Made by a program: the position numbers and the translations under genes
Shown: positions 48,182 through 60,296 of the stretch, in pieces
Layout: the number at the start of each line of letters is the position of its first letter
Position numbering within the stretch: position 1 is the stretch's first letter
Notes under the pieces: generated by a model
The model's input: the letters and a program-made list of their open reading frames with translations, nothing else
Database searches by the model: none
What the model was told of the DNA's origin: nothing
From: a virus
Length of the DNA stretch: 64,000 nt
IMG/VR virus record: IMGVR_UViG_3300027901_000001
Direction: 5' to 3' (one strand)

Positions 48182-50263
48182 ATGAGTATCGGGAATATCT
48201 TGAGTGAAGCAAAGGGGGAAACCGTCGCCGTCGCGGACGTGGAAGCAAAGCTCCTGGACGGTCTGAATCCGGAGCAGGAGGCCGTTGTCAAGCACGACAA
48301 AGGGCCGCTGCTCGTGGGCGCGGTCGCCGGAGCCGGGAAGACACACGCGCTGGTACGGCGTGTTGGCTACCTAGTCGCCGTGCGCGGCGTGCATCCGTCC
48401 AGGGTCCTAGCCGTCACCTTCAGTAAGAAGGGCGCGGACGAGATGCAGGAACGCCTGGACGCCCTCATTGGAAAGAGCGACGCCCGGATCGGCACATTCC
48501 ATTCCCTGGCCTATGAGATTCTCCGCATGGAGGTCCCCGCGTACCGTGAATGGAAGGTCGATGACCGTAACCGCTACCGCATCTGCCTGAAGGACGCCAC
48601 GGGCTACAAGGAAATGGACTGGAAGGCCGCCGACGTGACGGTCCTGGAGCATTTCGTGTCGCTGTGCAAGTGCGATATGGCACGGCCGGAATCCGATGTC
48701 GCCGCCGCCATCGCCCAGGGCATCTACCAGAAAAATCCCAAGGCCGCGACCAACCCGCGCATGATGCTGGAAGCGTATTCACGGGCAGAGGAAATCCGGC
48801 GCGAGCGCCAACTTCTGGGCTTCGATGACATGCTCATGGAGGCTGTGGAGCTGCTGCGCGATGACAACGATCTACGTCACCGCTGGGCCAGCAAGTACGA
48901 CTACGTGCTCCAAGATGAGGCCCAGGACCAGAATCTGTGCCAGCTCCTGATGGGCGAGCTGCTGGCTCAAGACCACCGAAACTACATGCTAGTGGGCGAC
49001 CCGGCGCAGACCATCTACACCTGGCGCGGCGCGAAGCCGGAAAAGCTGCTGGGCTTCGAGAAGACGTGGGAAGCCCATCTCATCACCATGAATCGGAACT
49101 ACCGAAGCGGTACCGAAATCATAGCCGCCGCCAACCTGGCACTGGAAGCGATGGCCCCCGAAACCAAGCTCGACATGGAAATGGTCGGCGAACGCGGCGC
49201 GGGAGGCGAAATCAGCGCCACAGAATATAGCGACCTGGACGAGGAAGGGGCCTGCATCGCGGACCAGATCAGGGAACTGCTGGCCGATGGCAAGCAGGCC
49301 CGCGACTTCGCCGTCCTGTACCGGACCAATGCCCAGTCGCGTGCACCCGAAGAAGCCCTCATCAGCGCCCGCATCCCTTACCGGATCATCGGCGGGGCGA
49401 GCTTCTACGAACGCAAGGAGGTCCGAGACCTGCTTGCCTATCTGCGGCTGGCCGAAGGCCGGGGCGACCTGGACGATATCGGCCGCGCCATCAACTCACC
49501 CTTCCGGTTCCTGGGCCGTGCCTTCCTGGACCGTATCCGCGACGCTGCCAAAGAGACGAAAGTTCACAAGGGCAAGGAGGGGACCTCCTGGAGCCAAGTC
49601 GTGCGCGATGTCTGCCGCCAGGCAGGAATCCAGCGCCGCCAGGTGTATAGCGCGGAGGACTGGGCCACCATGATCGAGGACCTGAAGTTCCGGATCGATC
49701 GTGCCAAGAATGCGGAGCCAGAGACCGATACCAAGGCCGCCGGGATGCCCGCCAGGGTCCTGGAGGACATCATCCGGCAAACCCAGTACACCGAATGGCT
49801 CCAGAAGGATGAAGGTGAGGAGAGCACCGAGAACAGCCGCGTCTCGAACGTCAGGGAGATGGTCCGGGCCGCTGGCCGGTTCACGTCGGTCGCCGACCTG
49901 CTGGACTACGTGGATGACACGCTGGCCGCCTCTAAGAAGCAGCGGCGCGAGGAAGGGGACAACCCCAACAAGGTCGTTCTCTGCTCCCTGCACCGCGCCA
50001 AGGGCTTGGAATGGCCCTGCGTGTTCCTGGCCGGGGCCTCCGAGAACATCCTACCGCACGGCCGGTGCGAGGACATCGAGGAAGAACGCCGCCTGTTCTA
50101 CGTGGGCGTCACCCGCGCCCGCGATCGGCTGGCCGTGAGCTGCGTCCGTAACGTGGCCTTCGGAGCCAAGGTGCTGTTCGTAGAACCCAGTCGGTTCATC
50201 GAGGAAGCGGGCCTGATACTTCAAAAATCAAATTTCGAGGGCGAGCAGGATATGGTATCCTAA
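48182..50263 (+). CDS. uvrD: UvrD/PcrA-like SF1 helicase
   Basis: 'LNPEQ', 'AVAGAGKT', 'LQDEAQD', 'VGDPAQTIY', 'NYRS', 'LYRTNAQSR', 'HRAKGLEW' and 'EERRLFYVGVTRAR'. Confidence 0.95.
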   Translation: MSIGNILSEAKGETVAVADVEAKLLDGLNPEQEAVVKHDKGPLLVGAVAGAGKTHALVRRVGYLVAVRGVHPSRVLAVTFSKKGADEMQERLDALIGKSDARIGTFHSLAYEILRMEVPAYREWKVDDRNRYRICLKDATGYKEMDWKAADVTVLEHFVSLCKCDMARPESDVAAAIAQGIYQKNPKAATNPRMMLEAYSRAEEIRRERQLLGFDDMLMEAVELLRDDNDLRHRWASKYDYVLQDEAQDQNLCQLLMGELLAQDHRNYMLVGDPAQTIYTWRGAKPEKLLGFEKTWEAHLITMNRNYRSGTEIIAAANLALEAMAPETKLDMEMVGERGAGGEISATEYSDLDEEGACIADQIRELLADGKQARDFAVLYRTNAQSRAPEEALISARIPYRIIGGASFYERKEVRDLLAYLRLAEGRGDLDDIGRAINSPFRFLGRAFLDRIRDAAKETKVHKGKEGTSWSQVVRDVCRQAGIQRRQVYSAEDWATMIEDLKFRIDRAKNAEPETDTKAAGMPARVLEDIIRQTQYTEWLQKDEGEESTENSRVSNVREMVRAAGRFTSVADLLDYVDDTLAASKKQRREEGDNPNKVVLCSLHRAKGLEWPCVFLAGASENILPHGRCEDIEEERRLFYVGVTRARDRLAVSCVRNVAFGAKVLFVEPSRFIEEAGLILQKSNFEGEQDMVS

Positions 50264-50357
50264 GCCCTTGAATCCCCCTCGGTCGCGCTGCGGCGTCGAG
50301 TCACCCTCCTTCCAAGTCGGTAACTCAAAAAGACTCCGCCAGGCGGCCGGGGGGCTT

Positions 50358-51329
50358 TTATTTCTGCGCCAGCAGCTTCGCCCGGTGAGCGTCGAACTTC
50401 CTCTCCGGCACAAATCTCAGCTTGTACTTCTTGTCGAGACCGTACTTGTCAATTAGGTCGATCACCGTGAGAAATGATTTGGGAAAACGATAACCCTGAG
50501 CCGCCAGCTCCAGCTCCTTTGTCGGCAGGGTTCCTTCCCGATGCTTCTTAATGACCTCGGGCGTCACCCTCTCATCTTTCAGCACAAGCAGCCTCGTTTT
50601 GGGGGGCACCCTGAAGGTATCCCCCTTCATTATCCACTCCCCCTCGTCCTTGTAGATGTCCCCGATCCTCTTCAGGGTCCTATGGGCGATACGATAAAAA
50701 TCCTTGATCGGAATCTTCTGGAGAAGGTCAAGGTAAAATTCTCCGATATCCCTCTTCTTCGCTATCTCGATAGAAGCGTTCCGAATCCATTTGGCCAAAT
50801 CCCTGATGGAATTTATCCGAGGGTTTTGGCCCCGAAATAACTCCCCGTATTTCGACCGGCTCAAGTACCCATAGTCTATCGCGTGCCCGATCTTGGCCAA
50901 CGGCGAGCCCATCGGCTCCTTCTGGAGAAACATCCGAAAGTAATCCATGAAATTCATCATCACGCCGTCACGGCCAAGCCCGCTCTCGGGATCTTTCTGC
51001 CATATCCGGTAGAGGCAAATGAGGTTCTTGGACACCAGGTACTCCGGCTTTTCGTAAAGTACCCTGGTCAACTTGTTCAGCTTCGCCACGTCCTTGCCGG
51101 GCATCACCAGCATCGCGTTACGCGCCACGCCCAGAAATTGCCTCACAATTCGCCTGTCGCCGGAGATGCCCTTCACCCCTTTCAAGACTCCGGATGCCAA
51201 CTGCTTCACCTGGTCCTCGTTGATATCGTCGATGTCGGTCACCAGCCAGAAGACGCCAGGCACGTCGGCGGGACCGTAGCTGCGCTCGATGAGAAAGAGC
51301 GCCCAGTCAAGCTGCTCGGAAATTCTCAT
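50358..51329 (-). CDS. Hypothetical protein with leader-like N-terminus (MRISEQLDWAL)
   Basis: 323-aa ORF with SD GGAG. Confidence 0.65.
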   Translation of the reverse strand: MRISEQLDWALFLIERSYGPADVPGVFWLVTDIDDINEDQVKQLASGVLKGVKGISGDRRIVRQFLGVARNAMLVMPGKDVAKLNKLTRVLYEKPEYLVSKNLICLYRIWQKDPESGLGRDGVMMNFMDYFRMFLQKEPMGSPLAKIGHAIDYGYLSRSKYGELFRGQNPRINSIRDLAKWIRNASIEIAKKRDIGEFYLDLLQKIPIKDFYRIAHRTLKRIGDIYKDEGEWIMKGDTFRVPPKTRLLVLKDERVTPEVIKKHREGTLPTKELELAAQGYRFPKSFLTVIDLIDKYGLDKKYKLRFVPERKFDAHRAKLLAQK

Positions 51330-51402
51330 CCATACTCTCCAGCTTCAAACGACCCGGTAAGATATTCCGCGATGAGCATGGCCCCAGAGTATCACCCGCC
51401 CA

Positions 51403-51418
51403 CGTTTCACGTGAAACA
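51403..51418. promoter_or_regulatory. parS: parS centromere site (15/16)
   Basis: CGTTTCACGTGAAACA, intergenic, at the end of the tRNA array. Confidence 0.82.
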
Positions 51419-51420
51419 TT

Positions 51421-51497
51421 CGGCACGGGCGGCTGGGGTCGAACCAACACCAACTCGGGTCAAAGCCGAGCGCCTCTACCAATTGGGCTACGCCCGT
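51421..51497 (-). tRNA. trnQ: tRNA-Gln(UUG)
   Basis: Cloverleaf; loop CTTTGAC. Confidence 0.92.
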
Positions 51498-51498
51498 G

Positions 51499-51575
51499 TA
51501 GCACTCCCACAGGGACTCGAACCCCGATTCCCGGCTCCGGAGGCCGGTGCTCTAATCCACTTGAGCTATGGGAGC
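51499..51575 (-). tRNA. trnR: tRNA-Arg(CCG)
   Basis: Cloverleaf; loop CTCCGGA. Confidence 0.92.
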
Positions 51576-51576
51576 C

Positions 51577-51652
51577 TGGCACCCGCGAGAGGACTCGAAC
51601 CTCCAGTGACCGGTTCCGTAGACCGGCGCTCGTCCAATTGAGCTTCGCGGGC
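51577..51652 (-). tRNA. trnR: tRNA-Arg(ACG)
   Basis: Cloverleaf; loop CTACGGA; CCA encoded. Confidence 0.93.
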
Positions 51653-51653
51653 C

Positions 51654-51727
51654 TGGATCGGGTGGCTGGAATCGAACCAGCGTTGACGGCGTCAGAGACC
51701 GTTGCCCTACCACTGGGCCACACCCGA
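51654..51727 (-). tRNA. trnQ: tRNA-Gln(CUG)
   Basis: Cloverleaf; loop CTCTGAC; CCA. Confidence 0.93.
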
Positions 51728-51728
51728 A

Positions 51729-51805
51729 TGGCGTCCCATCCCGGATTTGAACCGGGGTCTCCGGATTGAGGGTCCGACGGCCTGGGCCAGCTAGCCGAAT
51801 GGGAC
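51729..51805 (-). tRNA. trnE: tRNA-Glu(CUC)
   Basis: Cloverleaf; loop CCCTCAA (C33); CCA. Confidence 0.88.
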
Positions 51806-51806
51806 T

Positions 51807-51881
51807 TGGTGCACCTGGTGGGAATCGAACCCTACATCCCCGGCGTGAAAGACCGGTCGCCTACCATTAGCAGACAGGTGC
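51807..51881 (-). tRNA. trnE: tRNA-Glu(UUC)
   Basis: Cloverleaf; loop CTTTCAC; CCA. Confidence 0.92.
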
Positions 51882-51897
51882 AAGGGAGCGTTTCGAG

Positions 51898-51957
51898 TTA
51901 GCGGCGCTGCCGCTCTCGTTCTCGCTCTACCTCGCGCTGTCGTTGCCGTCGGAACAT
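51898..51957 (-). CDS. Leader peptide for the Glu/Gln/Arg tRNA block (MFRRQRQREVERERERQRR)
   Basis: 16 of 19 codons are E/Q/R; all Arg codons are CGN. Confidence 0.85.
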   Translation of the reverse strand: MFRRQRQREVERERERQRR

Positions 51958-51966
51958 GATGCTTTT

Positions 51967-51995
51967 ACCTTGCGGCCGACCGCAGGAATTGTCAA
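51967..51995 (-). promoter_or_regulatory. Sigma70-like promoter ahead of the E/Q/R leader
   Basis: TTGACA-N17-CAAGGT. Confidence 0.5.
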
Positions 51996-51997
51996 CC

Positions 51998-52074
51998 CGG
52001 AGTCGGTAGTGGGAATCGAACCCACGGCCTCCTGCTTACCATGCAGGCGCTCTACCAGCTTGAGCCATACCGAC
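51998..52074 (-). tRNA. trnT: tRNA-Thr(GGU)
   Basis: Cloverleaf; loop ATGGTAA. Confidence 0.92.
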
Positions 52075-52077
52075 AAA

Positions 52078-52091
52078 GGCAGTCGACTGCC
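52078..52091. repeat. 14-bp palindrome, copy 4
   Basis: Exact; spacer between two Thr tRNAs. Confidence 0.85.
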
Positions 52092-52168
52092 CGGAGCTGG
52101 TGACAGGAATCGAACCTGCGTCCTTCCGCTTACAAGGCGGATGCTCTGCCAACGCGAGCTTCACCAGC
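52092..52168 (-). tRNA. trnT: tRNA-Thr(UGU)
   Basis: Cloverleaf; loop CTTGTAA. Confidence 0.92.
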
Positions 52169-52169
52169 G

Positions 52170-52244
52170 CGGAGCCCCCGGTGGGAGTCGAACCCACGCC
52201 TCCTGAGTACGAAACAGGTGTGCTGCCGTTAGCACCACGGGGAC
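52170..52244 (-). tRNA. trnT: tRNA-Thr(CGU)
   Basis: Cloverleaf; loop TTCGTAC. Confidence 0.88.
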
Positions 52245-52378
52245 AGGGAAGCGGGCGTTACCCGCCTGCTGGTCCCTGTCGTGGTGCAGTGGTGGAACCG
52301 ACAGGACTCGAACCTGCAACCTTCTGGCTGCCAGCCAGACGCTCTCCCGAGTTGAGCTACGGACCCAAACACTTTCAT
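52229..52378 (-). promoter_or_regulatory. Thr-sensing leader ORF reading through tRNA-Ala(GGC)
   Basis: ATG 52378 with SD; 50 codons; spacer codons ACC ACG ACA GGG ACC ... ACG; stops inside tRNA-Thr(CGU). Confidence 0.65.
52290..52366 (-). tRNA. trnA: tRNA-Ala(GGC)
   Basis: Cloverleaf; loop CTGGCAG; G3:U70; CCA. Confidence 0.93.
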
Positions 52379-52426
52379 CTCCGTTCCTCTCCGGACATAA
52401 GACGATTTTTTATGTCCGATTATCCT

Positions 52427-52503
52427 CAGTGGACCCGGTGGGATTTGAACCCACGACCCTCTGCTTGCAAGGCAGACGCTCTCCCTGGCTGAGCTACAAG
52501 CCC
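52427..52503 (-). tRNA. trnA: tRNA-Ala(UGC)
   Basis: Cloverleaf; loop CTTGCAA. Confidence 0.9.
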
Positions 52504-52562
52504 ATGTGCCGTTTTACCGGCGTTGTCCTCTTCTATGTCTCCGACCTCCGATTATCCCTCAA

Positions 52563-52598
52563 AAAAAATGCCCCGTTTTTCACCGCGACGGCGGGGCC
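52563..52598 (-). terminator. Rho-independent terminator-like element between tRNA-Val and tRNA-Ala(UGC)
   Basis: GCCCCG ... CGGGGC stem followed by A and an 8-T run on the minus strand. Confidence 0.55.
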
Positions 52599-52638
52599 AC
52601 CCGCCGAAACCAAACCCCGCTGAAAAGCGTGAGTCCGA

Positions 52639-52714
52639 TGGTACGGGGAAGTGGAGTTGAACCACTGGCCTCCTGCTTGTAAGACAGGCGCTCTCCCAGT
52701 TGAGCTATCCCCGC
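52639..52714 (-). tRNA. trnV: tRNA-Val(UAC)
   Basis: Cloverleaf; loop CTTACAA; CCA. Confidence 0.92.
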
Positions 52715-52715
52715 A

Positions 52716-52790
52716 TAGTGCGAGCGCCGGGAATCGAACCCGGATTTCCGCCGTGGCGGGGCGACATGCTGCCGGTTGCATCACACTCGC
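52716..52790 (-). tRNA. trnG: tRNA-Gly(GCC)
   Basis: Cloverleaf; loop CCGCCAC (C33). Confidence 0.88.
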
Positions 52791-52792
52791 AT

Positions 52793-52866
52793 CGGAGAGC
52801 CGGGTGGGAGTCGAACCCAAACCTCGACGGGGTTGCAACCCGCCTCCATCCCGGATGGACCGGCTC
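52793..52866 (-). tRNA. trnC: tRNA-Cys(GCA)
   Basis: Cloverleaf; loop TTGCAAC; U73. Confidence 0.88.
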
Positions 52867-52916
52867 ACAAGTCCGCCCGAGCTTCTACAGAGTGGGTCTG
52901 GTTTGCGTTCGTACAT
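52867..52916 (-). promoter_or_regulatory. Cys leader (MYERKPDPLCRSSGGL...)
   Basis: SD GAGGAG plus ATG; one TGT codon; reads into tRNA-Cys. Confidence 0.5.
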
Positions 52917-52927
52917 GAGAGTCTCCT

Positions 52928-53000
52928 CGGCAGGCCAGGTGGGAATCGAACCCACTACAGTCGGATTTGGAATCCGACCGGCTACCTCAGCCTCTGACCT
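52928..53000 (-). tRNA. trnW: tRNA-Trp(CCA)
   Basis: Cloverleaf; loop TTCCAAA. Confidence 0.88.
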
Positions 53001-53023
53001 ATCTCTTACTTGGCGGGCCTGCC

Positions 53024-53146
53024 TTATCGCCAAGCGAGCACGGCCAGAGGCTCCATACCGATCGCGGCAGTCGCCTCCGCACACACGACGGCCGCGCAAC
53101 CAGCGGTTGCTGTCGCGGCGACCAGGGTCGTGTAGCGCATACGCAT
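53024..53146 (-). CDS. Leader peptide for the Trp/Cys/Gly/Val/Ala/Thr tRNA block
   Basis: MRMRYTTLVAATATAGCAAVVCAEATAAIGMEPLAVLAWR; 26 of 40 residues are T/A/V/G/C/W; SD AAGGTGAGG. Confidence 0.8.
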   Translation of the reverse strand: MRMRYTTLVAATATAGCAAVVCAEATAAIGMEPLAVLAWR

Positions 53147-53152
53147 ATCCTC

Positions 53153-53180
53153 ACCTTAAGGGATCTACTGCCGTTGTCAA
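53153..53180 (-). promoter_or_regulatory. Sigma70-like promoter ahead of the W/C/G/V/A/T leader
   Basis: TTGACA-N16-TAAGGT. Confidence 0.6.
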
Positions 53181-53182
53181 GC

Positions 53183-53272
53183 CGGTGCGGGTAGCAGGAC
53201 TCGAACCTGCACGGCCACAAGGACCAGCGGATTTTAAGTCCGCCATGACTACCAAGATTCCATCATACCCGC
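53183..53272 (-). tRNA. trnL: tRNA-Leu(UAA)
   Basis: Long variable arm; loop CTTAAAA. Confidence 0.92.
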
Positions 53273-53273
53273 G

Positions 53274-53366
53274 TAGCGGAAGGGACAGGGATCGAACCTG
53301 CAAGGGACGCAATGCCTCACCCGGATTCCAACCGGGCTCCATCGCCAACCGTTGGATTGCCCTTCC
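53274..53366 (-). tRNA. trnS: tRNA-Ser(GGA)
   Basis: Long variable arm; loop TTGGAAT. Confidence 0.9.
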
Positions 53367-53367
53367 T

Positions 53368-53455
53368 TGGTGCGAGTGAGAGGATTTGCACCTCCACGCC
53401 CATAAAGGGCACCTGGGTTTGAGCCAGGCTCGTCTGCTGATTCCGACACACTCGC
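53368..53455 (-). tRNA. trnL: tRNA-Leu(CAA)
   Basis: Long variable arm; loop CTCAAAC; CCA. Confidence 0.92.
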
Positions 53456-53456
53456 G

Positions 53457-53543
53457 TGGCGGAGGACGGAGGGCTCGATCCCCAGACCTTTCGGTCCGCA
53501 CTGCTTTCGAGACAGGCTTGATCCCACGACCAATTCATCCTCC
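53457..53543 (-). tRNA. trnS: tRNA-Ser(CGA)
   Basis: Long variable arm; loop CTCGAAA; CCA. Confidence 0.88.
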
Positions 53544-53544
53544 T

Positions 53545-53632
53545 TGGCGGAAAGCAGAGGTCCTGAGCCCCACACCTCTCGGTGCACACCGCTTTCAAGG
53601 CGGGTCCGGCGCGCCTGTCCGGTTTGCCTTCC
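53545..53632 (-). tRNA. trnS: tRNA-Ser(UGA)
   Basis: Long variable arm; loop CTTGAAA; CCA; atypical T-loop. Confidence 0.85.
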
Positions 53633-53633
53633 G

Positions 53634-53724
53634 TGGTACAGGTGACTGGACTCGAACCAGCACGGGGCTCTCGCCCCACCGGATCCTGAATCCGGCGTGT
53701 CTACCAAGATTCCACCACACCTGC
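53634..53724 (-). tRNA. trnL: tRNA-Leu(CAG)
   Basis: Long variable arm; loop TTCAGGA; CCA. Confidence 0.92.
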
Positions 53725-53725
53725 A

Positions 53726-53812
53726 TAGTACGGGTGAAGGGACTTGCACCCCCACGGCCCGAAGGCCACTGGATCCTTAGTCCAGCGCGTCTGCTGATTC
53801 CGCCACACCCGC
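53726..53812 (-). tRNA. trnL: tRNA-Leu(AAG), rare A34 anticodon
   Basis: Long variable arm; stem CTGGA/TCCAG, loop CTAAGGA. Confidence 0.88.
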
Positions 53813-53854
53813 GTGCGCCAGCCCTCTATGAGCTGCTGCGGGCGCTGGGCTGGA

Positions 53855-53932
53855 TTACTGGACAGACGGGTGCGCCCGCAGCTCGATTAAAAGCAACGAT
53901 GACAGGGATAGGCTGTGGACGCAGTAAAACAT
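53855..53932 (-). CDS. Leader peptide for the Leu/Ser tRNA block (MFYCVHSLSLSSLLLIELRAHPSVQ)
   Basis: Nine consecutive, all different Leu/Ser codons: AGC CTA TCC CTG TCA TCG TTG CTT TTA; downstream of a promoter-like element. Confidence 0.85.
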   Translation of the reverse strand: MFYCVHSLSLSSLLLIELRAHPSVQ

Positions 53933-53974
53933 GGTTCTTCCGTACTTCGATTCCCGGCGGCACCCCCTCAGAGG

Positions 53975-54002
53975 ATCTTAAGCGTAGAGGGGAAAAAGTC
54001 AA
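53975..54002 (-). promoter_or_regulatory. Sigma70-like promoter ahead of the Leu/Ser leader
   Basis: TTGACT-N16-TAAGAT. Confidence 0.6.
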
Positions 54003-54003
54003 C

Positions 54004-54159
54004 CTACTCTTGGAGCTGCTCTTTTTCAGATATCCGCGCCTTGCGCTCTTGCCAGGTCTGAGACTTTAAGCCTCCTTTGGCTCCGTTCTTCTTCCACGGT
54101 TTGCACATCAGACAACCGGCCCGCCTGCTTTTCGGACGCCTTCTCTTGTGATGGCCCAC
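54004..54159 (-). CDS. Small basic CxxC protein (MGHHKRRRPKSRRAGCLMCKPWKK...)
   Basis: 51-aa ORF, GTG start with SD GGAGGT; below the ORF-track cutoff. Confidence 0.55.
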   Translation of the reverse strand: MGHHKRRRPKSRRAGCLMCKPWKKNGAKGGLKSQTWQERKARISEKEQLQE

Positions 54160-54204
54160 GGTCACCTCCAGCGGCCTCCCGCCGCGTGTAAGGGATTTCA
54201 GCCA

Positions 54205-54516
54205 TCACAGCCTCCGTTTCTTCCGTTTCAGGGTGTACCGGGCCTCCACGGGCCGGTCCTTCACCCACTCAATGTACCGCCAAACCTTGGGGCTCGCCAA
54301 GAGCTTCTTCAGAGTGTTGTACTGGGTGCGCAGCTCCTGGTTCGTGAACATGAGGTGAATCTGGTCGCCACACTGATGGCAGACCTTGATCCCCTCCTTA
54401 GTACGCCGCCGCCGCTTGCCCGGCTCTAGGTGATGGAACACCAGATGGTCCGTCTCCCTGGAGCAGAGCGCGCAGCACAGCTTGTGCTTATTTTCCGGAC
54501 AGGCAGAGGGACGCAT
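54205..54516 (-). CDS. Small HNH-like endonuclease
   Basis: CALC...HHL...CHQC..QIH. Confidence 0.6.
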   Translation of the reverse strand: MRPSACPENKHKLCCALCSRETDHLVFHHLEPGKRRRRTKEGIKVCHQCGDQIHLMFTNQELRTQYNTLKKLLASPKVWRYIEWVKDRPVEARYTLKRKKRRL

Positions 54517-55450
54517 ACAGCACTTCGTCCCCCTCACCAACGAACTGGCCCGACAGCAACCTGCTGGCCACCGTCCGCAGGGAGAAGCCGCCCATCTTTT
54601 CGTCCGGCCGGGCAGCCGCCTCAAGCTGGAGTGCCTGGGTTTCGCCAACCACGGTGCTGGTCGTCTCCTGGTCCTTCTCGGTTGCCTCCTTCAGAGCCGC
54701 CTGGAGCCCCTCCAGGGACCGTTCTCCCACGGTAAGGGCCGACCTAGTAGCCGGAGGCAGCGGGTTGCCCTTGGCCACCTGGAGCGACAGGGAGCCGTAG
54801 CACACCCGAATCAGAGGCACCCACAGACGCTCCCAGAAGGCCACGGAGGGAGCGCGCTCGACGCCCACCACCTTGCCGCCTACCAGGATGATGCTGCCCA
54901 CCTGCCGGGGCACCAGCTCGAACTCGGCCACGAACTCATCGAGCTGCTTCTTGAAGTGCCGCAAGAAGTCCGCGATGTTGCCGCTGCCGGACAGGCCCAC
55001 GGACCGCTTGAAAGCGCGGATGAAGGTCCACAGCCGATCGTACTTATCCTCCAGCCGAGTCGCCAGCGCCTGAGCACGCAGCGCCGCCGGAAGGATGATC
55101 ATGCTGCCCTGCTGATCACGGATAAGCCCGCTCTGGGTCTCCTGGATGCAGCACGCCCGGTCCATGTCCCGCTCGCTCTTGGGAGCCATGAGCGCGCCCC
55201 CGCACACCGCGTGGTCCTGAGCCGCGTCCTTCACGCACCAGCCCGCGCCGGGCGACACAATAGAAGGCCGGTCGGCCGTGTTCCGAAGGTGCACGGAACC
55301 GTACTCGTGGGTCGAGGCGTGGAAATCCGGCGGAGCGAACCGATCGTCGTCTTCGTCGCTCAGCAGCGGAATCACCTCCATCTGTCCGACGCTCTGGCGA
55401 GCACCGGTCCTGGTTCCTTTAAGGATCTGTTCTACGGTCAGTGTAGGCAT
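54488..55450 (-). CDS. ARPP/DUF6569-like domain protein
   Basis: 'QSVGQMEVIPL', 'AAQDHAV', 'ACCIQETQSG'; coupled to the vWA gene; family call from memory of the motif pattern. Confidence 0.5.
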   Translation of the reverse strand: MPTLTVEQILKGTRTGARQSVGQMEVIPLLSDEDDDRFAPPDFHASTHEYGSVHLRNTADRPSIVSPGAGWCVKDAAQDHAVCGGALMAPKSERDMDRACCIQETQSGLIRDQQGSMIILPAALRAQALATRLEDKYDRLWTFIRAFKRSVGLSGSGNIADFLRHFKKQLDEFVAEFELVPRQVGSIILVGGKVVGVERAPSVAFWERLWVPLIRVCYGSLSLQVAKGNPLPPATRSALTVGERSLEGLQAALKEATEKDQETTSTVVGETQALQLEAAARPDEKMGGFSLRTVASRLLSGQFVGEGDEVLYASLCLSGK

Positions 55451-57036
55451 TACACACCTCCTCTCCCGAGCACCGGGAGCGCCCTGCCGATCAGGACGTT
55501 GATACCGCGCACCGGATCCGCCTCCAGCATCCCCCGGATGAACGTCAGCCCGATGGACGCCGGATCCTTCACCGGCATGGTGGAAGCCAGCTTGGGAGCC
55601 AGCTCCCGGACACTTCCAACCTCAGCCGCGAAAACCGGGTTGATGTGGTAGACCGGCGTTTCGATGCCGATCTCGCGTGCCTGGCCGAGCACCTCTGCAA
55701 ACCGTCCGGCCGGTCGGTTCTCATACCCATCGCTGAGCACAAAGATAACATCCGGCCCATCGGCCAGCAGCTCCAGGAGTCCCGAGGCCAGCTCGGTATC
55801 TCCGGACGGCCGGGGAGACTCGGCCCCCAGATTACCTCCACGGGTAACCTCAAAGGCGCGCTTCGTGGCTGTCCGCCTCAGCATATCGCGCATGGCCAGC
55901 ACGGCCGCCATCGGCCGCAGCGGCTGGGTCTTGTCCCCGGCCATCGACTTCGAGGCATCCACCAGGATGCCAACGTTCTCGTAGCTCACCGGGAACGCCT
56001 TGGCCGCCTTCCGAGCCTTGGCCAGAAGAGCCTCCTCGATCTCTCCAGTCATGCCCATCTCGAAGGCGTACAGGTAAAGCCGGACCGCATCGTAGTCCTT
56101 CGGATCCATCTCGACCTTGACCCCAGCCTTCTTCGCCTGACGCTGCACCGTCATCTTCTGCTTCTTGCTGAGAGTGCCTTCCTTCGCAGCGTGCTTCAGC
56201 ACCTCATCCTTGGAGACCTCCTGGTGGTAGGTGCTCCGCAGGCCCTCCAGAACCTCCGGCGGCAGTCGACTGCCTTCCGCCAGGTCCTTCTTGGCCGCCT
56301 CCCGAGCCTTGAGCAGGGGGGTCTTCCAGGTCCGCGTGCCACCGAGCACGAAGCACACGTACTCGTACACGTCGGACGGCTTGCCCTGGTGGTACTTGTC
56401 GATGCTGTCGCGGAGAATCTTCTTCTCCTTGTCCGTCCAGGTCCGGGCGCTCCGGCTCAGGATCGTCCGGATCACCGTGGTGCGCTTCTGGCCCCAGGCG
56501 TGGGTCAGGGCCTCGCTCATCTTGCTGCGGTACTTCACGGCCCACCAGTCCAACTTCCTGGAGCTGAGGATGGTCCGCAGCATCAGCTTCCGGGTCCGGG
56601 CGTTGTTGGCCTTCGGCGTCTCCTGGGTGCCCACGCGGAATCCCTGGAAGAGCTTGAACACCATCTGCGGAGGCATCTCGCGCATGTAGTGGTAGAGCAC
56701 CTCGCGCTCCATCTTGGCGTCGAGCAGGCCATCGGTCTGGCTGTTACGCGGGGTACCGAGCAGATTCTTGGTGCCGATCTGCACGGCGCGCTCCATCACG
56801 CCCGGCAGCACCAACAGCAAGGCGTACAGGTCACGGTCGAGCTTCATCATGGCCTGGTGCGCAGCCAGCTCCGCCTTCTGCTGCTCCTGGCGCGTGTTGT
56901 AGTGGGTAGCCCGGCCAAACGAGGTCGAGGCCGTGTCCAGGAAATGGCACACGATCTCCCCCGCCTTCTTCGCAGTCACACGCTGCGGAGGCTTCCACCT
57001 GATTTCATCGCTGTCCCTGGTAACGATGTCCGGCAT
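55450..57036 (-). CDS. TROVE/Ro60-like helical domain plus vWA (MIDAS) protein
   Basis: 528 aa; MIDAS 'VDASKSM' and 'VLSDGYEN'; helical N-terminal two-thirds with 'PPEVLEGL'; size and architecture as in Ro60. Confidence 0.65.
   Translation of the reverse strand: MPDIVTRDSDEIRWKPPQRVTAKKAGEIVCHFLDTASTSFGRATHYNTRQEQQKAELAAHQAMMKLDRDLYALLLVLPGVMERAVQIGTKNLLGTPRNSQTDGLLDAKMEREVLYHYMREMPPQMVFKLFQGFRVGTQETPKANNARTRKLMLRTILSSRKLDWWAVKYRSKMSEALTHAWGQKRTTVIRTILSRSARTWTDKEKKILRDSIDKYHQGKPSDVYEYVCFVLGGTRTWKTPLLKAREAAKKDLAEGSRLPPEVLEGLRSTYHQEVSKDEVLKHAAKEGTLSKKQKMTVQRQAKKAGVKVEMDPKDYDAVRLYLYAFEMGMTGEIEEALLAKARKAAKAFPVSYENVGILVDASKSMAGDKTQPLRPMAAVLAMRDMLRRTATKRAFEVTRGGNLGAESPRPSGDTELASGLLELLADGPDVIFVLSDGYENRPAGRFAEVLGQAREIGIETPVYHINPVFAAEVGSVRELAPKLASTMPVKDPASIGLTFIRGMLEADPVRGINVLIGRALPVLGRGGV
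56261..56274. repeat. 14-bp palindrome, copy 5
   Basis: Exact; inside the TROVE-like gene. Confidence 0.8.
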
Positions 57037-57057
57037 GGTTGTACCTCCAGAAAAATA

Positions 57058-57189
57058 CCGGGGGTAAGTTGCTCGTCATTTGTCTCGCGCCTTTACCAGT
57101 TAGGCCACGCCCCCGCTTGGTGGGGGCGGCAGGACTCGAACCTGCAATCTCGGGATTCCATATCCGAAAATGACGCGACAGTTCCCCGG
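57058..57189 (-). ncRNA. Y-RNA-like RNA with a circularly permuted tRNA-like domain
   Basis: Outer stem CCGGGG/CCCCGG plus GCGUCAUUU/AAAUGACG encloses, in order, a T-arm (GCAGG-TTCGAGT-CCTGC), a loop-closed acceptor stem (CGCCCCC-ACCAAGC-GGGGGCG) and a D-arm (GCC-TAACTGGTAAA-GGC); directly upstream of the TROVE-like gene. Confidence 0.75.
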
Positions 57190-57199
57190 ATAAATTAAG

Positions 57200-57271
57200 C
57201 CCCGGTCACGGTGACTGTCGCGGAGTAAAGGGGTTAACCAAAATCCTAAAACGACAGCGCAGTTCCCGAGG
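57200..57271 (-). ncRNA. Short GAACU-motif hairpin RNA
   Basis: CCUCGG-GAACU-gcgCUGUCG ... CGACAG ... CCGGGG. Confidence 0.5.
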
Positions 57272-57285
57272 TCTAATCTTTCGCC

Positions 57286-57442
57286 TGTTCGTAGCGACCG
57301 GCCTGAGACAGGGGGGTTGTCAGGTTTTTTGAAAGAAAACAGGAATCGGACCTGTACCTTCTGTTGGTAAAACAGACGTGCTACCGTTGCACTATCTCTT
57401 CCGAAACTAGCAACCTAGTTCTCAGGTCCGTCGCTACGAACA
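57286..57442 (-). ncRNA. Long-stem RNA enclosing a degenerate tRNA-like cloverleaf
   Basis: TGTTCGTAGCGAC/GTCGCTACGAACA and CCTGAGA/TCTCAGG stems; the inner 57331..57402 has D-, anticodon-like (TCTGT/ACAGA) and T-like arms with a poor acceptor stem. Confidence 0.6.
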
Positions 57443-57480
57443 AGCTCCTTTCATTCATACCCTCCTTCCGAGTATCTCCA

Positions 57481-57508
57481 TTATTAGCCTATGTTTTCCG
57501 TTTGTCAA
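57481..57508 (-). promoter_or_regulatory. Sigma70-like promoter ahead of the Y-like RNA/TROVE-like operon
   Basis: TTGACA-N16-TAATAA(T). Confidence 0.55.
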
Positions 57509-57527
57509 ATCCTGTCTTGATTTTTTC

Positions 57528-57613
57528 TGGCGGAAGGCAGAGGTCCCGACCCTCAGACCCGGAGGCCCCAACGGCTTAGCAGGCCGCGCCTGTCCCCGAC
57601 AGGTTTACCTTCC
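57528..57613 (-). tRNA. trnS: tRNA-Ser(GCU)
   Basis: Long variable arm; loop CTGCTAA; CCA. Confidence 0.87.
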
Positions 57614-57662
57614 CAAGGTTCCTGCTCGGGCGCGTACTGCTCTCTGTTGCTCTGCCTCTCAT
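57614..57662 (-). promoter_or_regulatory. Ser(GCU) leader (MRGRATESSTRPSRNL...)
   Basis: AGC AGT ... AGC and no TCN codons. Confidence 0.7.
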
Positions 57663-57671
57663 CGCTTTCCT

Positions 57672-57745
57672 CGGTGGGTCTGAAGGGAATCGAACCCCTG
57701 TAGTCCGGTTAAGAGCCGGATGCTCGGCCACTGAGCGACAGACCC
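57672..57745 (-). tRNA. trnK: tRNA-Lys(CUU)
   Basis: Cloverleaf; loop CTCTTAA. Confidence 0.92.
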
Positions 57746-57809
57746 TCGCGTGCGCGCACCTCCGCGTGCGCGTGCGCTTGAGCCTGGTCTGTCGATTTAC
57801 CGAAATCAT
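57746..57809 (-). promoter_or_regulatory. Lys(CUU) leader (MISVNRQTRLKR...)
   Basis: SD AGGAG; single Lys codon is AAG; CGACAGACC pairs with the tRNA 5' strand. Confidence 0.65.
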
Positions 57810-57820
57810 CGTGAAACTCC

Positions 57821-57895
57821 TGGTGGGCGCGGTGGGAATCGAACCCACGGATTCCGGGTTAAAAGCCCGGTACCCTGCCATCGGGTGCCACGCCC
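57821..57895 (-). tRNA. trnK: tRNA-Lys(UUU)
   Basis: Cloverleaf; loop CTTTTAA; CCA. Confidence 0.9.
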
Positions 57896-57933
57896 TCGAT
57901 GGGACGCGGCGATCGTTTCAGTCTCCTATTCAT
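57896..57933 (-). promoter_or_regulatory. Lys(UUU) leader (MNRRLKRSPRPI...)
   Basis: Single Lys codon is AAA; GCCGCGTCC pairs with the tRNA 5' GGGCGTGGC. Confidence 0.62.
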
Positions 57934-58008
57934 AGCTCCAGGGGCAGGCGTCGAACCCGCATAGTCTCGGTTAACAGCCGAGCGCCTTACCAGTTAGGCT
58001 ACCCTGGA
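57933..58008 (-). tRNA. trnN: tRNA-Asn(GUU)
   Basis: Cloverleaf; loop CTGTTAA. Confidence 0.92.
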
Positions 58009-58053
58009 AGAACACCGCTGGGGCCGACCGTTGGCCGACCCGGTGGTATTCAT
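58009..58053 (-). promoter_or_regulatory. Asn leader (MNTTGSANGRPQRCS...)
   Basis: AAT and AAC codons. Confidence 0.55.
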
Positions 58054-58058
58054 TCCAG

Positions 58059-58134
58059 TGGCAGGAGTGGAAGGACTCGAACCCTCATCACCGGGGTAGA
58101 AGCCCGGTGCTCTCATCCGTTGAGCTACACTCCC
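58059..58134 (-). tRNA. trnR: tRNA-Arg(UCU)
   Basis: Cloverleaf; loop CTTCTAC; CCA. Confidence 0.92.
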
Positions 58135-58136
58135 TC

Positions 58137-58211
58137 GGGCGGGAGCGGCGGGAGTCGAACCCGCACAGACCAGCTTAGGAGGCCGGTACCCATCCATTAG
58201 GCGTCGCTCCC
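58137..58211 (-). tRNA. trnR: tRNA-Arg(CCU)
   Basis: Cloverleaf; loop CTCCTAA. Confidence 0.88.
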
Positions 58212-58260
58212 AGATGCTGTCCTGGAATCTTCGCCTGTATCTGTGCTCGATCCGTTCCAT
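58212..58260 (-). promoter_or_regulatory. Arg(CCU/UCU) leader (MERIEHRYRRRFQDSI...)
   Basis: CGG AGA AGG CGA AGA; contains both AGG and AGA. Confidence 0.72.
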
Positions 58261-58271
58261 CTTCTTCTTCC

Positions 58272-58348
58272 TGGTAGGCCCGGTCGGATTTGAACCGACG
58301 ACCACGCCCTTATCGGGGGCGTGCTCTACCTATCTGAGCTACGAGCCC
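58272..58348 (-). tRNA. trnI: tRNA-Ile(GAU)
   Basis: Cloverleaf; loop CCGATAA (C33); CCA. Confidence 0.9.
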
Positions 58349-58398
58349 ATCACCCTTGCGCGCCGGTCTCAACCGGCCCGGTAATGAGCACAGCCTGT

Positions 58399-58911
58399 TT
58401 ACGCAACACTCGCATACGTTCTCCTGTTCACAATGTAAGATACGGTGGTCTTTGGAACCCCATACTTCTCCATCAGCTCTTTATACGACATGCCCCGATC
58501 CCGATCTTTTCTCAGGTTTCGCACCTCATCTTCGGAAACCTTGCTTCTAACCCTCCCTGCCTTCCGAGCATCCAAGGTCCTCTTTCTTTTGTCCTTATCT
58601 AACGTGTTCTGAGAATGCGTCCCGATTGCGATGTTCCCTTTGCTATTGTTCAGTGGGTTTCCGTCCAAGTGTCGCGCCTCCACTCCTTCAGCAAACGCAT
58701 CTTCTCCGAACCACTGATAGGCCGCCAACAGATGGACGGCGACATTATATTCTACCCCTTTGTCCTTTATCTTAAATGACAAGTACCCTTTTCTGTCGTC
58801 GTAAAGACTCCTTTTCTTGCCTGACGCTGCTGTTACCTCTCCTGCCTCTGAAACCCTGTATCCTTTACGAAAAGCAATCAACACTGCGGTAATCTTTTTT
58901 GACCGCCTCAT
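58399..58911 (-). CDS. HNH homing endonuclease with C-terminal HTH, inserted in the tRNA array
   Basis: 'VHLLAAY', 'ARHLDGNPLNNSKGNI...THSQN'; AT-rich. Confidence 0.85.
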   Translation of the reverse strand: MRRSKKITAVLIAFRKGYRVSEAGEVTAASGKKRSLYDDRKGYLSFKIKDKGVEYNVAVHLLAAYQWFGEDAFAEGVEARHLDGNPLNNSKGNIAIGTHSQNTLDKDKRKRTLDARKAGRVRSKVSEDEVRNLRKDRDRGMSYKELMEKYGVPKTTVSYIVNRRTYASVA

Positions 58912-58912
58912 T

Positions 58913-58991
58913 TTGCGCTCCGGGGCAGGATCGAACTGCCGACACCTCGGGCTTCAACCGAGTGCTCTACCAACGCCTGAGCTACCGGAGC
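58913..58991 (-). tRNA. trnF: tRNA-Phe(GAA)
   Basis: Cloverleaf; loop TTGAAGC. Confidence 0.9.
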
Positions 58992-59048
58992 AGAATCGCT
59001 ACGGCAGCCCGTAAAGCCCTCATCGTATGTCCTCTTCCTGTCCATCAT
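58992..59048 (-). promoter_or_regulatory. Phe leader (MMDRKRTYDEGFTGCRSDS...)
   Basis: TTT followed by GGCTGCCGTAGC, which pairs 11/12 with the tRNA 5' end; start uncertain. Confidence 0.58.
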
Positions 59049-59053
59049 CTCCT

Positions 59054-59127
59054 CGGTGCGGGCAAAGGGAATCGAACCCATTTCTCCAGGGTGGAAACCT
59101 GGCATCTCACCGTTGGACCGTACCCGC
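59054..59127 (-). tRNA. trnG: tRNA-Gly(UCC)
   Basis: Cloverleaf; loop TTTCCAC. Confidence 0.9.
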
Positions 59128-59165
59128 ATGGCCAGCAGCAGGCTCTCCCTGCACGGTCCCTCCTC
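59128..59165 (-). promoter_or_regulatory. Gly(UCC) leader
   Basis: In-frame GGA GGA GGG ACC GTG CAG GGA; GGACCGTGC pairs with tRNA GTACGGTCC. Confidence 0.62.
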
Positions 59166-59243
59166 CGGTCCACCCGGTCGGACTCGAACCGATCATCGCT
59201 CGCTTATAGGGCGAGTGCTCTACGCAGATTGAGCTACGGGTGG
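59166..59243 (-). tRNA. trnI: tRNA-Ile(UAU), rare anticodon
   Basis: Cloverleaf; stem CTCGC/GCGAG, loop CCTATAA; A73. Confidence 0.85.
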
Positions 59244-59298
59244 TCACCGTAACGGGCGCGACCCGTGCGCCTATCTGCCTATCCGCTCGCCTTGCCAT
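59244..59298 (-). promoter_or_regulatory. Ile(UAU) leader (MARRADRQIGARV...)
   Basis: The only Ile codon is ATA; SD-like GGAGG upstream. Confidence 0.62.
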
Positions 59299-59539
59299 GC
59301 CTCAGTCCCTCCATGTACCACTGGTATTCGTGACCTCTGACCGTTCCTCCGCACTTCTTACAACGATACTGCGCCCTGAAATGTAATCCGTCGTTTTCCT
59401 TTTCAAATTCGTGCGGCCCTTCACACTCCCTGAGCTTCTTGTGGTTGGCCTTCACCTCTTCCCAGATTTGATTGATTTCCTTTTTCTTCAGCCCCGATAC
59501 GTTCGCTAGCGCGTCTAGTGCCTTGTCAACCATGCTCAC
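59279..59539 (-). CDS. Small Zn-finger hypothetical protein
   Basis: C...H.F...Y.CKKCG. Confidence 0.6.
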   Translation of the reverse strand: MSMVDKALDALANVSGLKKKEINQIWEEVKANHKKLRECEGPHEFEKENDGLHFRAQYRCKKCGGTVRGHEYQWYMEGLRHGKASG

Positions 59540-59540
59540 C

Positions 59541-59629
59541 TGGTGCGCCGGGAGGGAATCGAACCCCCATAGCCCGTCAGGACACCTGGGTTACAGCCAG
59601 GCCCCCGTACCAATTCGAGGAACCGACGC
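59541..59629 (-). tRNA. trnY: tRNA-Tyr(GUA)
   Basis: Long variable arm; loop CTGTAAC; CCA. Confidence 0.9.
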
Positions 59630-59691
59630 ATACCGGTTTCCGCCGCCTCTCGCGGCCCGGTATAGCGCCTGTCTGTCCTGCACCCTGTCAT
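59630..59691 (-). promoter_or_regulatory. Tyr leader (MTGCRTDRRYTGPREAAETG...)
   Basis: SD AGGAG; one TAT codon; alternative hairpins. Confidence 0.5.
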
Positions 59692-59721
59692 CGTTTCCAT
59701 CTCCTGTTCCGCAACAAGCAA

Positions 59722-59879
59722 GTAAACCGAGGCAAGGGCTCTCGTTGGTTTTGGCTTTTGAGTTACCCCGGCGATAAAAAAGGCTTGCGCCTAGCGCCGG
59801 GGGCTGGACTCGAACCAGCAACGTTCAGTCTATCAAACTGATACTCTTCCTATAACAACGCGATAGTTCCTCGGTTTAC
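59722..59879 (-). ncRNA. Second Y-RNA-like RNA with permuted T-arm/acceptor domain
   Basis: 11-bp outer stem GTAAACCGAGG/CCTCGGTTTAC, GAACU, CGTTG/CAACG; T-arm GCTGG-TTCGAGT-CCAGC followed by the CCCCGGCG/CGCCGGGG stem. Confidence 0.68.
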
Positions 59880-59907
59880 CTCCTTGCTGCGAGCTGAAAC
59901 AAACAGG

Positions 59908-60034
59908 TGATCTGAGACAGGTTGAACGTCAGTTTTGGTAAAGGGGGTCTGCACGACCTACACGGACTTATGCGTGTCCGTCATTGGTTTTCAGCCAATG
60001 GCATTCCTAGACTGGCGGTACAGTTCTCAGATCA
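59908..60034 (-). ncRNA. GAACU-motif long-stem RNA, paralogue of 57286..57442
   Basis: TGATCTGAGA/TCTCAGATCA stem; shares CTGAGAACT ... CTGAC ... CCTGTCTCAG with 57286..57442. Confidence 0.55.
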
Positions 60035-60058
60035 ACTCTTTCTTCCAACACCTCCTTT

Positions 60059-60136
60059 TGGGCTGGCCGACGGGACTCGAACCCGCAAAAAACACGGCCC
60101 ACAACCGTGTGCCTCGTCCGGCTGGCTCCGACCAGC
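60059..60136 (-). tRNA. trnH: tRNA-His(GUG)
   Basis: 8-bp acceptor stem with G-1:C73; loop TTGTGGG; CCA. Confidence 0.9.
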
Positions 60137-60174
60137 ATAATATGGCCGGAGCCCGTATGTCTTTCGCCCTTCAT
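60137..60174 (-). promoter_or_regulatory. His leader (MKGERHTGSGHI...)
   Basis: Two CAT codons flank GGCTCCGGCCA, which pairs 11 bp with tRNA TGGTCGGAGCC. Confidence 0.75.
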
Positions 60175-60184
60175 CTTCCTTCTC

Positions 60185-60258
60185 CAGCGCCCCGTACGGG
60201 ACTCGAACCCGTCTCATTGGATCGACAGTCCAACTGCATCCCCGATGCACAACGAGGC
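60185..60258 (-). tRNA. trnD: tRNA-Asp(GUC)
   Basis: Cloverleaf; loop CTGTCGA; G73. Confidence 0.87.
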
Positions 60259-60296
60259 ATCAGATCGTCAGCCGGTTCTGTATCTATCCAGGTCAT
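60259..60296 (-). promoter_or_regulatory. Asp leader (MTWIDTEPADDL...)
   Basis: SD AGGAG; GAT, GAC, GAT in 12 codons. Confidence 0.68.

Follow-up and report, generated by a model that had tools for sequence, protein, structure and literature searches.

Why does a short open reading frame (ORF) of 40 codons stand between a promoter-like site and a block of nine tRNA genes in a phage genome, and what could its translation mean for the tRNAs encoded behind it? tRNA genes are textbook cases of control by promoter and processing, not by translation. The locus lies on the minus strand of a stretch of 64,000 nucleotides (nt) (the window, by which we mean the whole stretch of DNA that was analysed), which is the last part of an IMG/VR virus record (IMGVR_UViG_3300027901_000001; 191,623 bp, direct terminal repeats) from an uncultured phage of marine sediment. 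The block behind the ORF encodes tRNAs for Trp, Cys, Gly, Val, Ala, Ala, Thr, Thr and Thr. A previous description of this DNA, made from the letters without database searches (the sequence-only reading), took the ORF for a leader peptide that senses supply for the whole block and acts in addition as a local switch on tRNA-Trp, with a hydrophobic membrane peptide as the alternative. Our analysis suggests, with about an even chance of being right, that the RNA of the translated leader locks the adjacent tRNA-Trp, that a ribosome dwelling near the only UGG codon would release it, and that this predicted switch is part of an array-wide control of tRNA maturation gated by translation.

The leader ORF (53024..53146, minus strand) comprises 40 codons followed by TAA, with a second in-frame ATG at 53140. 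Its composition is exactly the one previously reported (12 Ala, 5 Thr, 4 Val, 2 Gly, 2 Cys and 1 Trp), and these six amino acids account for 26 of 39 residues. The Thr codons are ACG, ACC, ACA, ACC and ACT, and both Gly codons are GGT. Codons cognate to the tRNA block occupy 24 of 39 positions compared to a background of 0.26 in the phage genes (binomial P=3e-6), while frames +1 and +2 of the same letters contain 14 and 13 of 39 (33-36%). The proposed match between leader and block thus exceeds both chance and the expectation from nucleotide composition, and the sequence indicates that the Thr, Ala, Val, Gly and Cys codons of the leader are under selection. A Shine-Dalgarno (SD) sequence, GAGGA, is found upstream at 53152-53148 as had been described; its distance to the first ATG (53146) is just 1 nt, and to the second (53140) 7 nt. 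This spacing implies that translation starts with the 38-codon version, or that the 40-codon version is nearly leaderless.

To place the leader in an evolutionary context, syntenic arrays were fetched through homologues of a vWA-like protein encoded nearby (55450-57036), whose identity to the protein of the window is 82% in lineage L003, 76% in L004 (with L005 and L006), 75% in L237 and 63% in L008. The leader is kept in L003, L004, L237 and a further lineage, P0126. The alignment of leader and tRNA-Trp consists of four DNA lineages, and the fifth, P0126, is known as protein only. Across the four, block residues make up 62-68% of the leader, always with two GGT codons, two Cys codons and one UGG beside the stop; the P0126 leader has the same synteny and 29 of 38 block residues by hand count. 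All five lineages retain the ATG, an open frame and a stop just behind the UGG. The content of the tRNA block is nearly constant among the lineages compared, and the window, which alone has two Ala tRNAs, also has the most Ala codons in its leader (12 versus 9, 8 and 5). Homologues of the peptide away from tRNA genes, which the sequence-only reading had named as evidence against itself, were not found. More specifically, a profile search of 1.84 billion representative proteins returned no leader homologue beyond syntenic phage contigs, two 15-mer scans of viral contigs with conserved leader words gave chance matches only, none of them beside tRNAs, and a 22-letter gapped pattern run against metagenome contigs revealed no new lineage and, besides the known contigs, one chance match.

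The predicted promoter, TTGACA (53180-53175) separated by 16 nt from TAAGGT (53158-53153), is likewise present (53153..53180, minus strand). Its -35 hexamer is invariant in L003, L004 and L237. The -10 hexamer is weak, matching TATAAT at three of six letters, and for this reason a consensus promoter scan does not list the site. Fifteen sites in the 191.6-kb genome, three tRNA-leader promoters included, fit the pattern of TTGAC[AT], a spacer of 15-18 nt and a TTAGAT or TAAGAT-like -10, and this motif probably represents an early promoter class of the phage that is read by host sigma-70. Several of the 15 sites are followed by GGAAGGAGGG.

We then consider the RNA of the leader together with the first tRNA gene of the block, tRNA-Trp (cca; 52929..53000, minus strand). 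The sequence-only reading had proposed that part of the leader pairs with the 5' strand of this tRNA, and it does: GCCTCTGGCC (53051-53042), located 9-18 nt before the TGG codon, is complementary to nt 2-11 of tRNA-Trp. An extra A-U pair extends this helix from 10 to 11 base pairs (bp), defining an 11-nt anti-tRNA segment (53042..53052, minus strand; codons 32-35) that pairs with tRNA nt 2-12 (52999-52989). The predicted duplex with the tRNA-Trp 5' end has an energy of -28.7 kcal/mol and ranks first of 17 when compared to the 5' ends of other tRNAs. The anti-tRNA segment is invariant, and 97.7% of the cells of its helix are paired across lineages. Nested within this clamp is hairpin II (53009..53034, minus strand), a 7-bp stem with two compensatory pairs, whose 5' arm contains the only UGG (53032-53030) and whose loop contains the stop codon (53026-53024). 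Further upstream, hairpin I (53083..53133, minus strand) spans codons 5-22 of the leader, with an invariant outer part of 7 bp and an inner part of 6 bp that includes three compensatory pairs. Together, hairpins I and II are 97.5% paired in four lineages with five pairs changed on both sides, an outcome reached by 1 of 500 shuffles. The second complementarity that had been pointed out, between GGCAGGCC (53023-53016, minus strand) and the 3' end of tRNA-Trp, exists in the window and is not conserved: the segment varies among lineages and the complementarity is absent in L004. The corresponding helix is 81% paired across lineages, with one double change in L237.

Structure prediction on the whole precursor agrees with these pairings. 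The minimum free energy of the 218-nt RNA made up of leader and tRNA-Trp is -109.8 kcal/mol (z=-4.3), and the structure contains the clamp enclosing hairpin II. RNAalifold predicts the clamp unaided, together with a 4-bp helix involving the tRNA 3' end. Because the 11-nt segment pairs with nt 2-12, the acceptor and D stems of tRNA-Trp are predicted not to form in the full precursor. Accordingly, the predicted probability of the acceptor stem is 0.98 for the tRNA alone and 0.00 behind the real leader, compared to 0.69 behind shuffled leaders (none of 30 as low) and 0.50 behind other leaders. The predicted lock on tRNA-Trp is thus well supported by computation. An Rfam search over 50000-62500 returned tRNA models and sub-threshold YrlA matches only, with no T-box or other known leader family.

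The effect of translation on the lock was modelled by forcing a ribosome-sized stretch of RNA to be unpaired and shifting it codon by codon. In this model, roughly nine sense codons at the end of the ORF release tRNA-Trp when they occupy the A site. For UGG, the acceptor-stem probability then reaches 0.99, 0.45, 0.78 and 0.96 in the four lineages, and with realistic footprints a ribosome at the stop codon no longer releases the tRNA in L004 and L237. The acceptor-stem probabilities, the release at UGG and the RNAalifold prediction support, on the computational side, the local switch on tRNA-Trp that the sequence-only reading had proposed, and it is plausible, in the Trp case, that ribosome stalling on the cognate codon opens the lock.

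The leader is not alone in its design. There are three promoter-proximal leaders in the array (one for Leu/Ser, the one under study and one for Glu/Gln/Arg) and about 14 mini-ORFs with SD and ATG; such a mini-ORF is found in nearly every longer spacer between 57.4 and 60.6 kb. The two sister leaders also stand behind TTGAC promoters: the leader at 53932 has 10 of 24 Leu/Ser-cognate codons and precedes Leu, Leu, Ser, Ser, Leu, Ser and Leu tRNAs, and the leader at 51957 has 16 of 18 Glu/Gln/CGN-Arg codons and precedes Glu, Glu, Gln, Arg, Arg and Gln tRNAs. Units were defined by a fixed rule as the ATG ORF of at least 8 codons ending nearest to the tRNA. An in-frame cognate codon is present in 17 of 17 units (null mean 7.8, permutation p<2e-5), compared to 7 and 9 for frames +1 and +2, and the match extends to the level of isoacceptors (AGA/AGG versus CGN, GGT versus GGA, ATA versus ATT, AAA versus AAG, and AGC/AGT versus TCN). 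SD cores precede 12 of 19 starts versus 16% of all ATGs. The three leaders and most mini-ORFs are kept in the relatives, which show the same array-wide codon match, and cognate positions there are 72% conserved versus 49% for others.

Pairing follows a similar trend across the array. When the leader of each of the 17 units is paired with its own tRNA at the 5' end, the duplex energy averages -20.0 kcal/mol versus -16.8 kcal/mol in permuted combinations (p=2e-5). Middle and 3' parts of the tRNAs show this effect only weakly, and the reverse complement does not show it. The mean predicted probability of an acceptor stem over all units is 0.95 for tRNAs alone, 0.07 with the real leader, 0.39 with shuffled leaders and 0.37 with other leaders. 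The locks predicted for Ala and Thr(cgt) are indistinguishable from those of shuffled spacers.

Within the block, translation signals continue beyond tRNA-Trp. The SD sequence GAGGAG (52928-52923) and an ORF of 127 codons from the ATG at 52916 (together 52533..52928, minus strand) follow directly. Beginning 13 nt after tRNA-Trp, the ORF has its TGT and GGC codons upstream of tRNA-Cys (gca). Its frame stays open through this tRNA, tRNA-Gly (gcc) and tRNA-Val (tac), the three being spaced by 3 nt (52639..52866, minus strand), and continues across a U-run. The homologous ORFs in L003, L004 and L237 have 139-151 codons and end within the first Thr tRNA, having passed Cys, Gly, Val and Ala as well as conserved Thr codons in the same frame; in the window, an insert splits the ORF. 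A third ORF (within 52229..52503, minus strand) has an SD and extends from the ATG at 52378 to 52229 through tRNA-Ala (ggc; 52366-52290, minus strand). It enters in-frame ACC ACG ACA (52285-52277), one codon for each of the Thr tRNAs (cgt, tgt and ggt; 51999..52244, minus strand), and its frame is open in four lineages. More generally, the frame of a mini-ORF stays open through the whole first tRNA in 33 of 43 cases versus 19 of 86 for other frames (five lineages), and mini-ORF stops often overlap the next start (ATGA, GTGA). Since the frames stay open and stops overlap starts in this way, ribosomes probably traverse the tRNA sequences. Judging from these ORFs, the downstream tRNAs may have local sensors of their own, with ORF 52916 and the Thr codons preceding the Thr tRNAs as candidates.

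Taken together, we favour the following explanation. The stretch would act in cis as the translated leader of a transcription unit for phage tRNAs and be one element of an array-wide scheme, in which short ORFs containing the codons of downstream tRNAs precede those tRNAs. The locked precursor would be a poor substrate for RNase P. Once the A site reaches the last nine or so sense codons, the ribosome would cover the anti-tRNA segment, and the tRNA could fold and be cut out. The only UGG would be the final codon of this release window, a ribosome at the stop having already moved off the segment. When little charged tRNA-Trp is available, UGG would be decoded slowly, the dwell would be longer and more phage tRNA-Trp would be released. 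The remaining tRNAs of the block would be served by further ORFs, with ORF 52916 running through Cys, Gly and Val and another through Ala into the three Thr codons. In a wider version, which we consider possible though short of probable, the whole array would be a translated polycistronic RNA whose coupled mini-ORFs bring ribosomes across the tRNA bodies. With each pass, spacer RNA would lock the 5' strand of the following tRNA anew, and RNase P would gain access to a tRNA only if a ribosome dwelt on its codon directly upstream, which would provide on demand a supply resolved by isoacceptor. Such a supply would act, for instance, when host tRNAs are cut or short.

Several results weigh against this explanation. 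A ribosome on codons 1-30 leaves tRNA-Trp locked in all four lineages, and because these codons never release it, the main codon content of the leader is not explained by the Trp lock. For the same reason, and because no terminator follows the leader, the block-level sensing put forward in the sequence-only reading is left without a demonstrated mechanism; we infer at most that the Thr, Ala, Val, Gly and Cys content could act through a 5'-stalled ribosome that stabilises the precursor, or through pausing at hairpin I. The position of UGG inside the release window is weak evidence by itself because any of about nine codons releases the tRNA. Release further depends on the footprint, and fails (0.02-0.10) when just 12 nt are covered 5' of the A site. 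The anti-tRNA helix changes twice from U-A to U-G, and nowhere on both sides, among four to five fairly close lineages, and equilibrium folding leaves out co-transcriptional kinetics, tRNA tertiary structure and modifications. SD and start context vary between lineages, and over all units cognate codons release the locks no better than other codons (0.37 versus 0.31).

The last two points are also what competing explanations would expect. The inconsistent SD fits an element that works as RNA only, in which a structured 5' leader sets processing order, access of RNase E or RNase P, or stability, and the ORF is a by-product of GC-rich hairpins with no role for ribosomes. The leader is conserved at the nucleotide level, hairpins I and II are kept with compensatory changes that alter the peptide, and the shifted frames, at 33-36%, also exceed the 26% background of block-cognate codons, all of which fits such an element. 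We nevertheless find it unlikely, since the leader's own frame shows nearly double the enrichment of the other frames, the ATG, open frame and stop beside UGG persist in five lineages, and across the array the codon match is specific to the frame, starts carry SD cores and frames are open through tRNAs. The equal performance of cognate and other codons in the release model is instead what one expects if the RNA is translated and senses no supply: ribosomes would shield the precursor from Rho or RNases, or reset its folds, and cognate codons would merely tie ribosome traffic to the tRNAs being made. This view, which we hold to be quite unlikely, accounts well for the read-through of whole tRNAs and for ORFs of 127-151 codons that pass three or four tRNAs with stops overlapping the next start. 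What it leaves unexplained is the choice of codons at the level of isoacceptors (AGA/AGG versus CGN, GGT versus GGA, ATA versus ATT, AAA versus AAG) and the specific pairing of a leader with the 5' end of its own tRNA.

Two further explanations fare worse. A small functional peptide, hydrophobic or lipoprotein-like and placed before tRNAs by coincidence, is suggested by the window version: its N-terminus is basic, its core is rich in Ala and Thr, and an invariant Gly-Cys resembles a lipobox. In L004 and L237, however, the peptide begins acidic and polar, and L237 has Asp at lipobox position -3. What is conserved is the nucleotide sequence, the residues vary where RNA pairs compensate, no homologue outside arrays was found among the 1.84 billion representatives, and the two sister leaders, which are not hydrophobic, follow the same block logic. 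We consequently disfavour the membrane peptide offered by the sequence-only reading and regard it as very improbable. A classical leader-peptide attenuator of transcription, in which stalling blocks a terminator hairpin and RNA polymerase reads into the tRNA genes, would fit the short ORF enriched in regulatory codons behind a promoter, as well as the alternative helices. Yet folding and a terminator scan revealed no intrinsic terminator behind any of the three leaders, and the 23 nt between the leader stop codon and tRNA-Trp contain no stem plus U-run. As no terminator stands behind it, the leader is not a classical attenuator, an explanation to which we assign hardly any probability. The only U-run element lies 430 nt downstream between the Val and Ala genes (52561..52605, minus strand), where the sequence-only reading had noted a terminator-like hairpin. 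Hairpin and U-run are indeed there, as a U8 run (52568-52561) following a 6-bp stem with a 16-nt loop (52597-52570). This stem competes with a stronger hairpin (52605-52590), the element is weak, the terminator scan does not call it, and the insert that carries it is absent from L003, L004 and L237, making it specific to this genome.

How does the favoured explanation, a leader RNA that locks tRNA-Trp and a ribosome that would release it, compare to known systems? Enterobacterial attenuators (thrL reading Thr/Ile, ilvL reading Ile/Leu/Val, and trpL, hisL, pheL and leuL) likewise have a short promoter-proximal ORF enriched in codons that report on supply, the position of the ribosome picks between alternative helices, and one leader can read several amino acids. 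They differ in that they control biosynthetic enzymes, whereas the phage leader precedes nine tRNA genes, and in that they use an intrinsic terminator with an antiterminator, whereas the phage leader has no terminator and, in the model, the RNA downstream is unaffected by a ribosome on codons 1-30. The competing helix of the phage leader uses the 5' strand of the first tRNA, and its output would be folding and maturation of a tRNA, unlike the transcription termination of the attenuators. Translational attenuation of ermC, cat and cmlA would resemble it more: in these systems a paused leader ribosome frees a sequestered downstream element without transcription termination, as is proposed for the phage leader. 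Sequestration by leader RNA, as in ermC and cat, has its counterpart in the predicted 11-bp helix with nt 2-12 of tRNA-Trp. In ermC and cat a ribosome-binding site is freed and an antibiotic-bound ribosome is the trigger, whereas in the phage a tRNA acceptor strand would be freed and a scarce tRNA is the presumed trigger. By analogy, attenuation of the erm/cat type, with a tRNA strand replacing the ribosome-binding site, would be the nearest working analogue.

Other systems share single traits. In pyrBI and pyrE attenuation, the leader ORF spans the terminator, which is suppressed when a ribosome follows closely, and ORF 52916 similarly spans the U8 element; the phage element differs in being weak and genome-specific and in having no apparent link to nucleotide pools. 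T-box riboswitches and the pheM leader of pheST respond to how much of a given tRNA is available and act back on the translation machinery, as the phage leader would. Unlike the phage leader, T-boxes bind uncharged tRNA directly and control aminoacyl-tRNA synthetase or amino-acid genes, and pheM controls a synthetase through a terminator. E. coli pheV, a possible precedent, has no Phe-rich leader, as the 100 nt upstream contain a promoter and a leader of 3-4 nt only. A literature search retrieved no publication that describes leader peptides in front of tRNA genes or a tRNA-supply sensor of this kind.

Leader-peptide control has so far ended in transcription termination or in exposure of a ribosome-binding site. 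If our explanation is true, tRNA folding would be a third output, with ribosomes gauging the supply of individual tRNAs directly and gating maturation of the matching phage tRNA. It would explain how large phages regulate costly tRNA arrays, provide a compact and portable sensor of codon-specific decoding speed, and bear on the arms race around tRNA-cleaving host defences.

Among the genes of the phage are those for portal, major head protein and head protease. A search of sequencing runs traced its DNA solely to a marine-sediment metagenome and listed no RNA data set containing it. Compared to any cultured phage, its major capsid protein stays below 34% identity, and a megablast search of the tRNA array against cultured phages gave no match; there is consequently no laboratory model at hand. 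ARAGORN identifies 37 tRNAs, every one of them encoded by the minus strand in the interval from 51.4 to 61.7 kb. Further ones come from Rfam and from reading by eye, namely Gly(tcc) (59130-59057) and a pair of Ser tRNAs (53632-53457). In this array, ARAGORN misses or misreads several tRNAs. The two Ser tRNAs (tga and cga; 53457-53632) have unusual T arms, and Gly(tcc) (59057-59130) was found by Rfam alone. An 83-nt tRNA-like match (61163-61245) and an 87-nt 'tRNA-???' called with a 2-nt anticodon (61356-61442) may both contain insertions in the anticodon loop. In L237 (2828-2903) and L008 (1289-1362), a tRNA with a CAT anticodon, called Met, occupies the slot of tRNA-Ile(tat) of the window (59167-59243). 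The mini-ORF preceding this slot keeps an in-frame ATA in all four lineages, which suggests that the CAT tRNAs are lysidine-type Ile tRNAs reading ATA.

Some parts of the array look inserted or recently acquired. tRNA-Ala (tgc; 52503-52429, minus strand) and its flanks (52414-52605) resemble an inserted cassette: the whole insert is missing from L003, L004 and L237, and near-identical words of 13-14 nt bracket the cassette, GAGGGATAATCGGA at 52560-52547 and GAGGATAATCGGA at 52426-52414. In the cassette, the weak terminator-like element precedes the tRNA gene. Of the sigma-70-like promoters in the region, the best (TTGACA, 17 nt, AATAAT) belongs to an AT-rich tRNA-Val(tac) (57330-57508), whose slot is variable, with Ala or Ile tRNAs in relatives; this tRNA looks recently acquired. 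Two HNH endonuclease genes are found within the array (58399-58911 and 61754-62332). The start of the former overlaps (ATGA) the stop of an ORF that reads through tRNA-Phe, to which the gene may be translationally coupled.

The middle of the array holds a conserved gene pair (54488-57330, minus strand) encoding the 528-aa vWA-like protein and an ARPP-1/ARPP-2 protein. The vWA-like protein has no Pfam match and no sequence match to solved Ro60/TROVE structures. Upstream of the pair lies a structured gene-free stretch of 290 nt with tRNA-like pieces, and a sub-threshold match to YrlA, a Y-RNA-like family, is found at 57055-57189 (31 bits versus a gathering score of 69). The gene pair and the upstream RNA could be a Ro/Y-RNA-like module for RNA quality control. 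Finally, tRNA-Thr(tgt) and tRNA-Thr(ggt) are separated by an 18-nt spacer that contains a 14-nt palindrome, GGCAGTCGACTGCC (52078-52091), which L004 carries at the same place as a one-letter variant.

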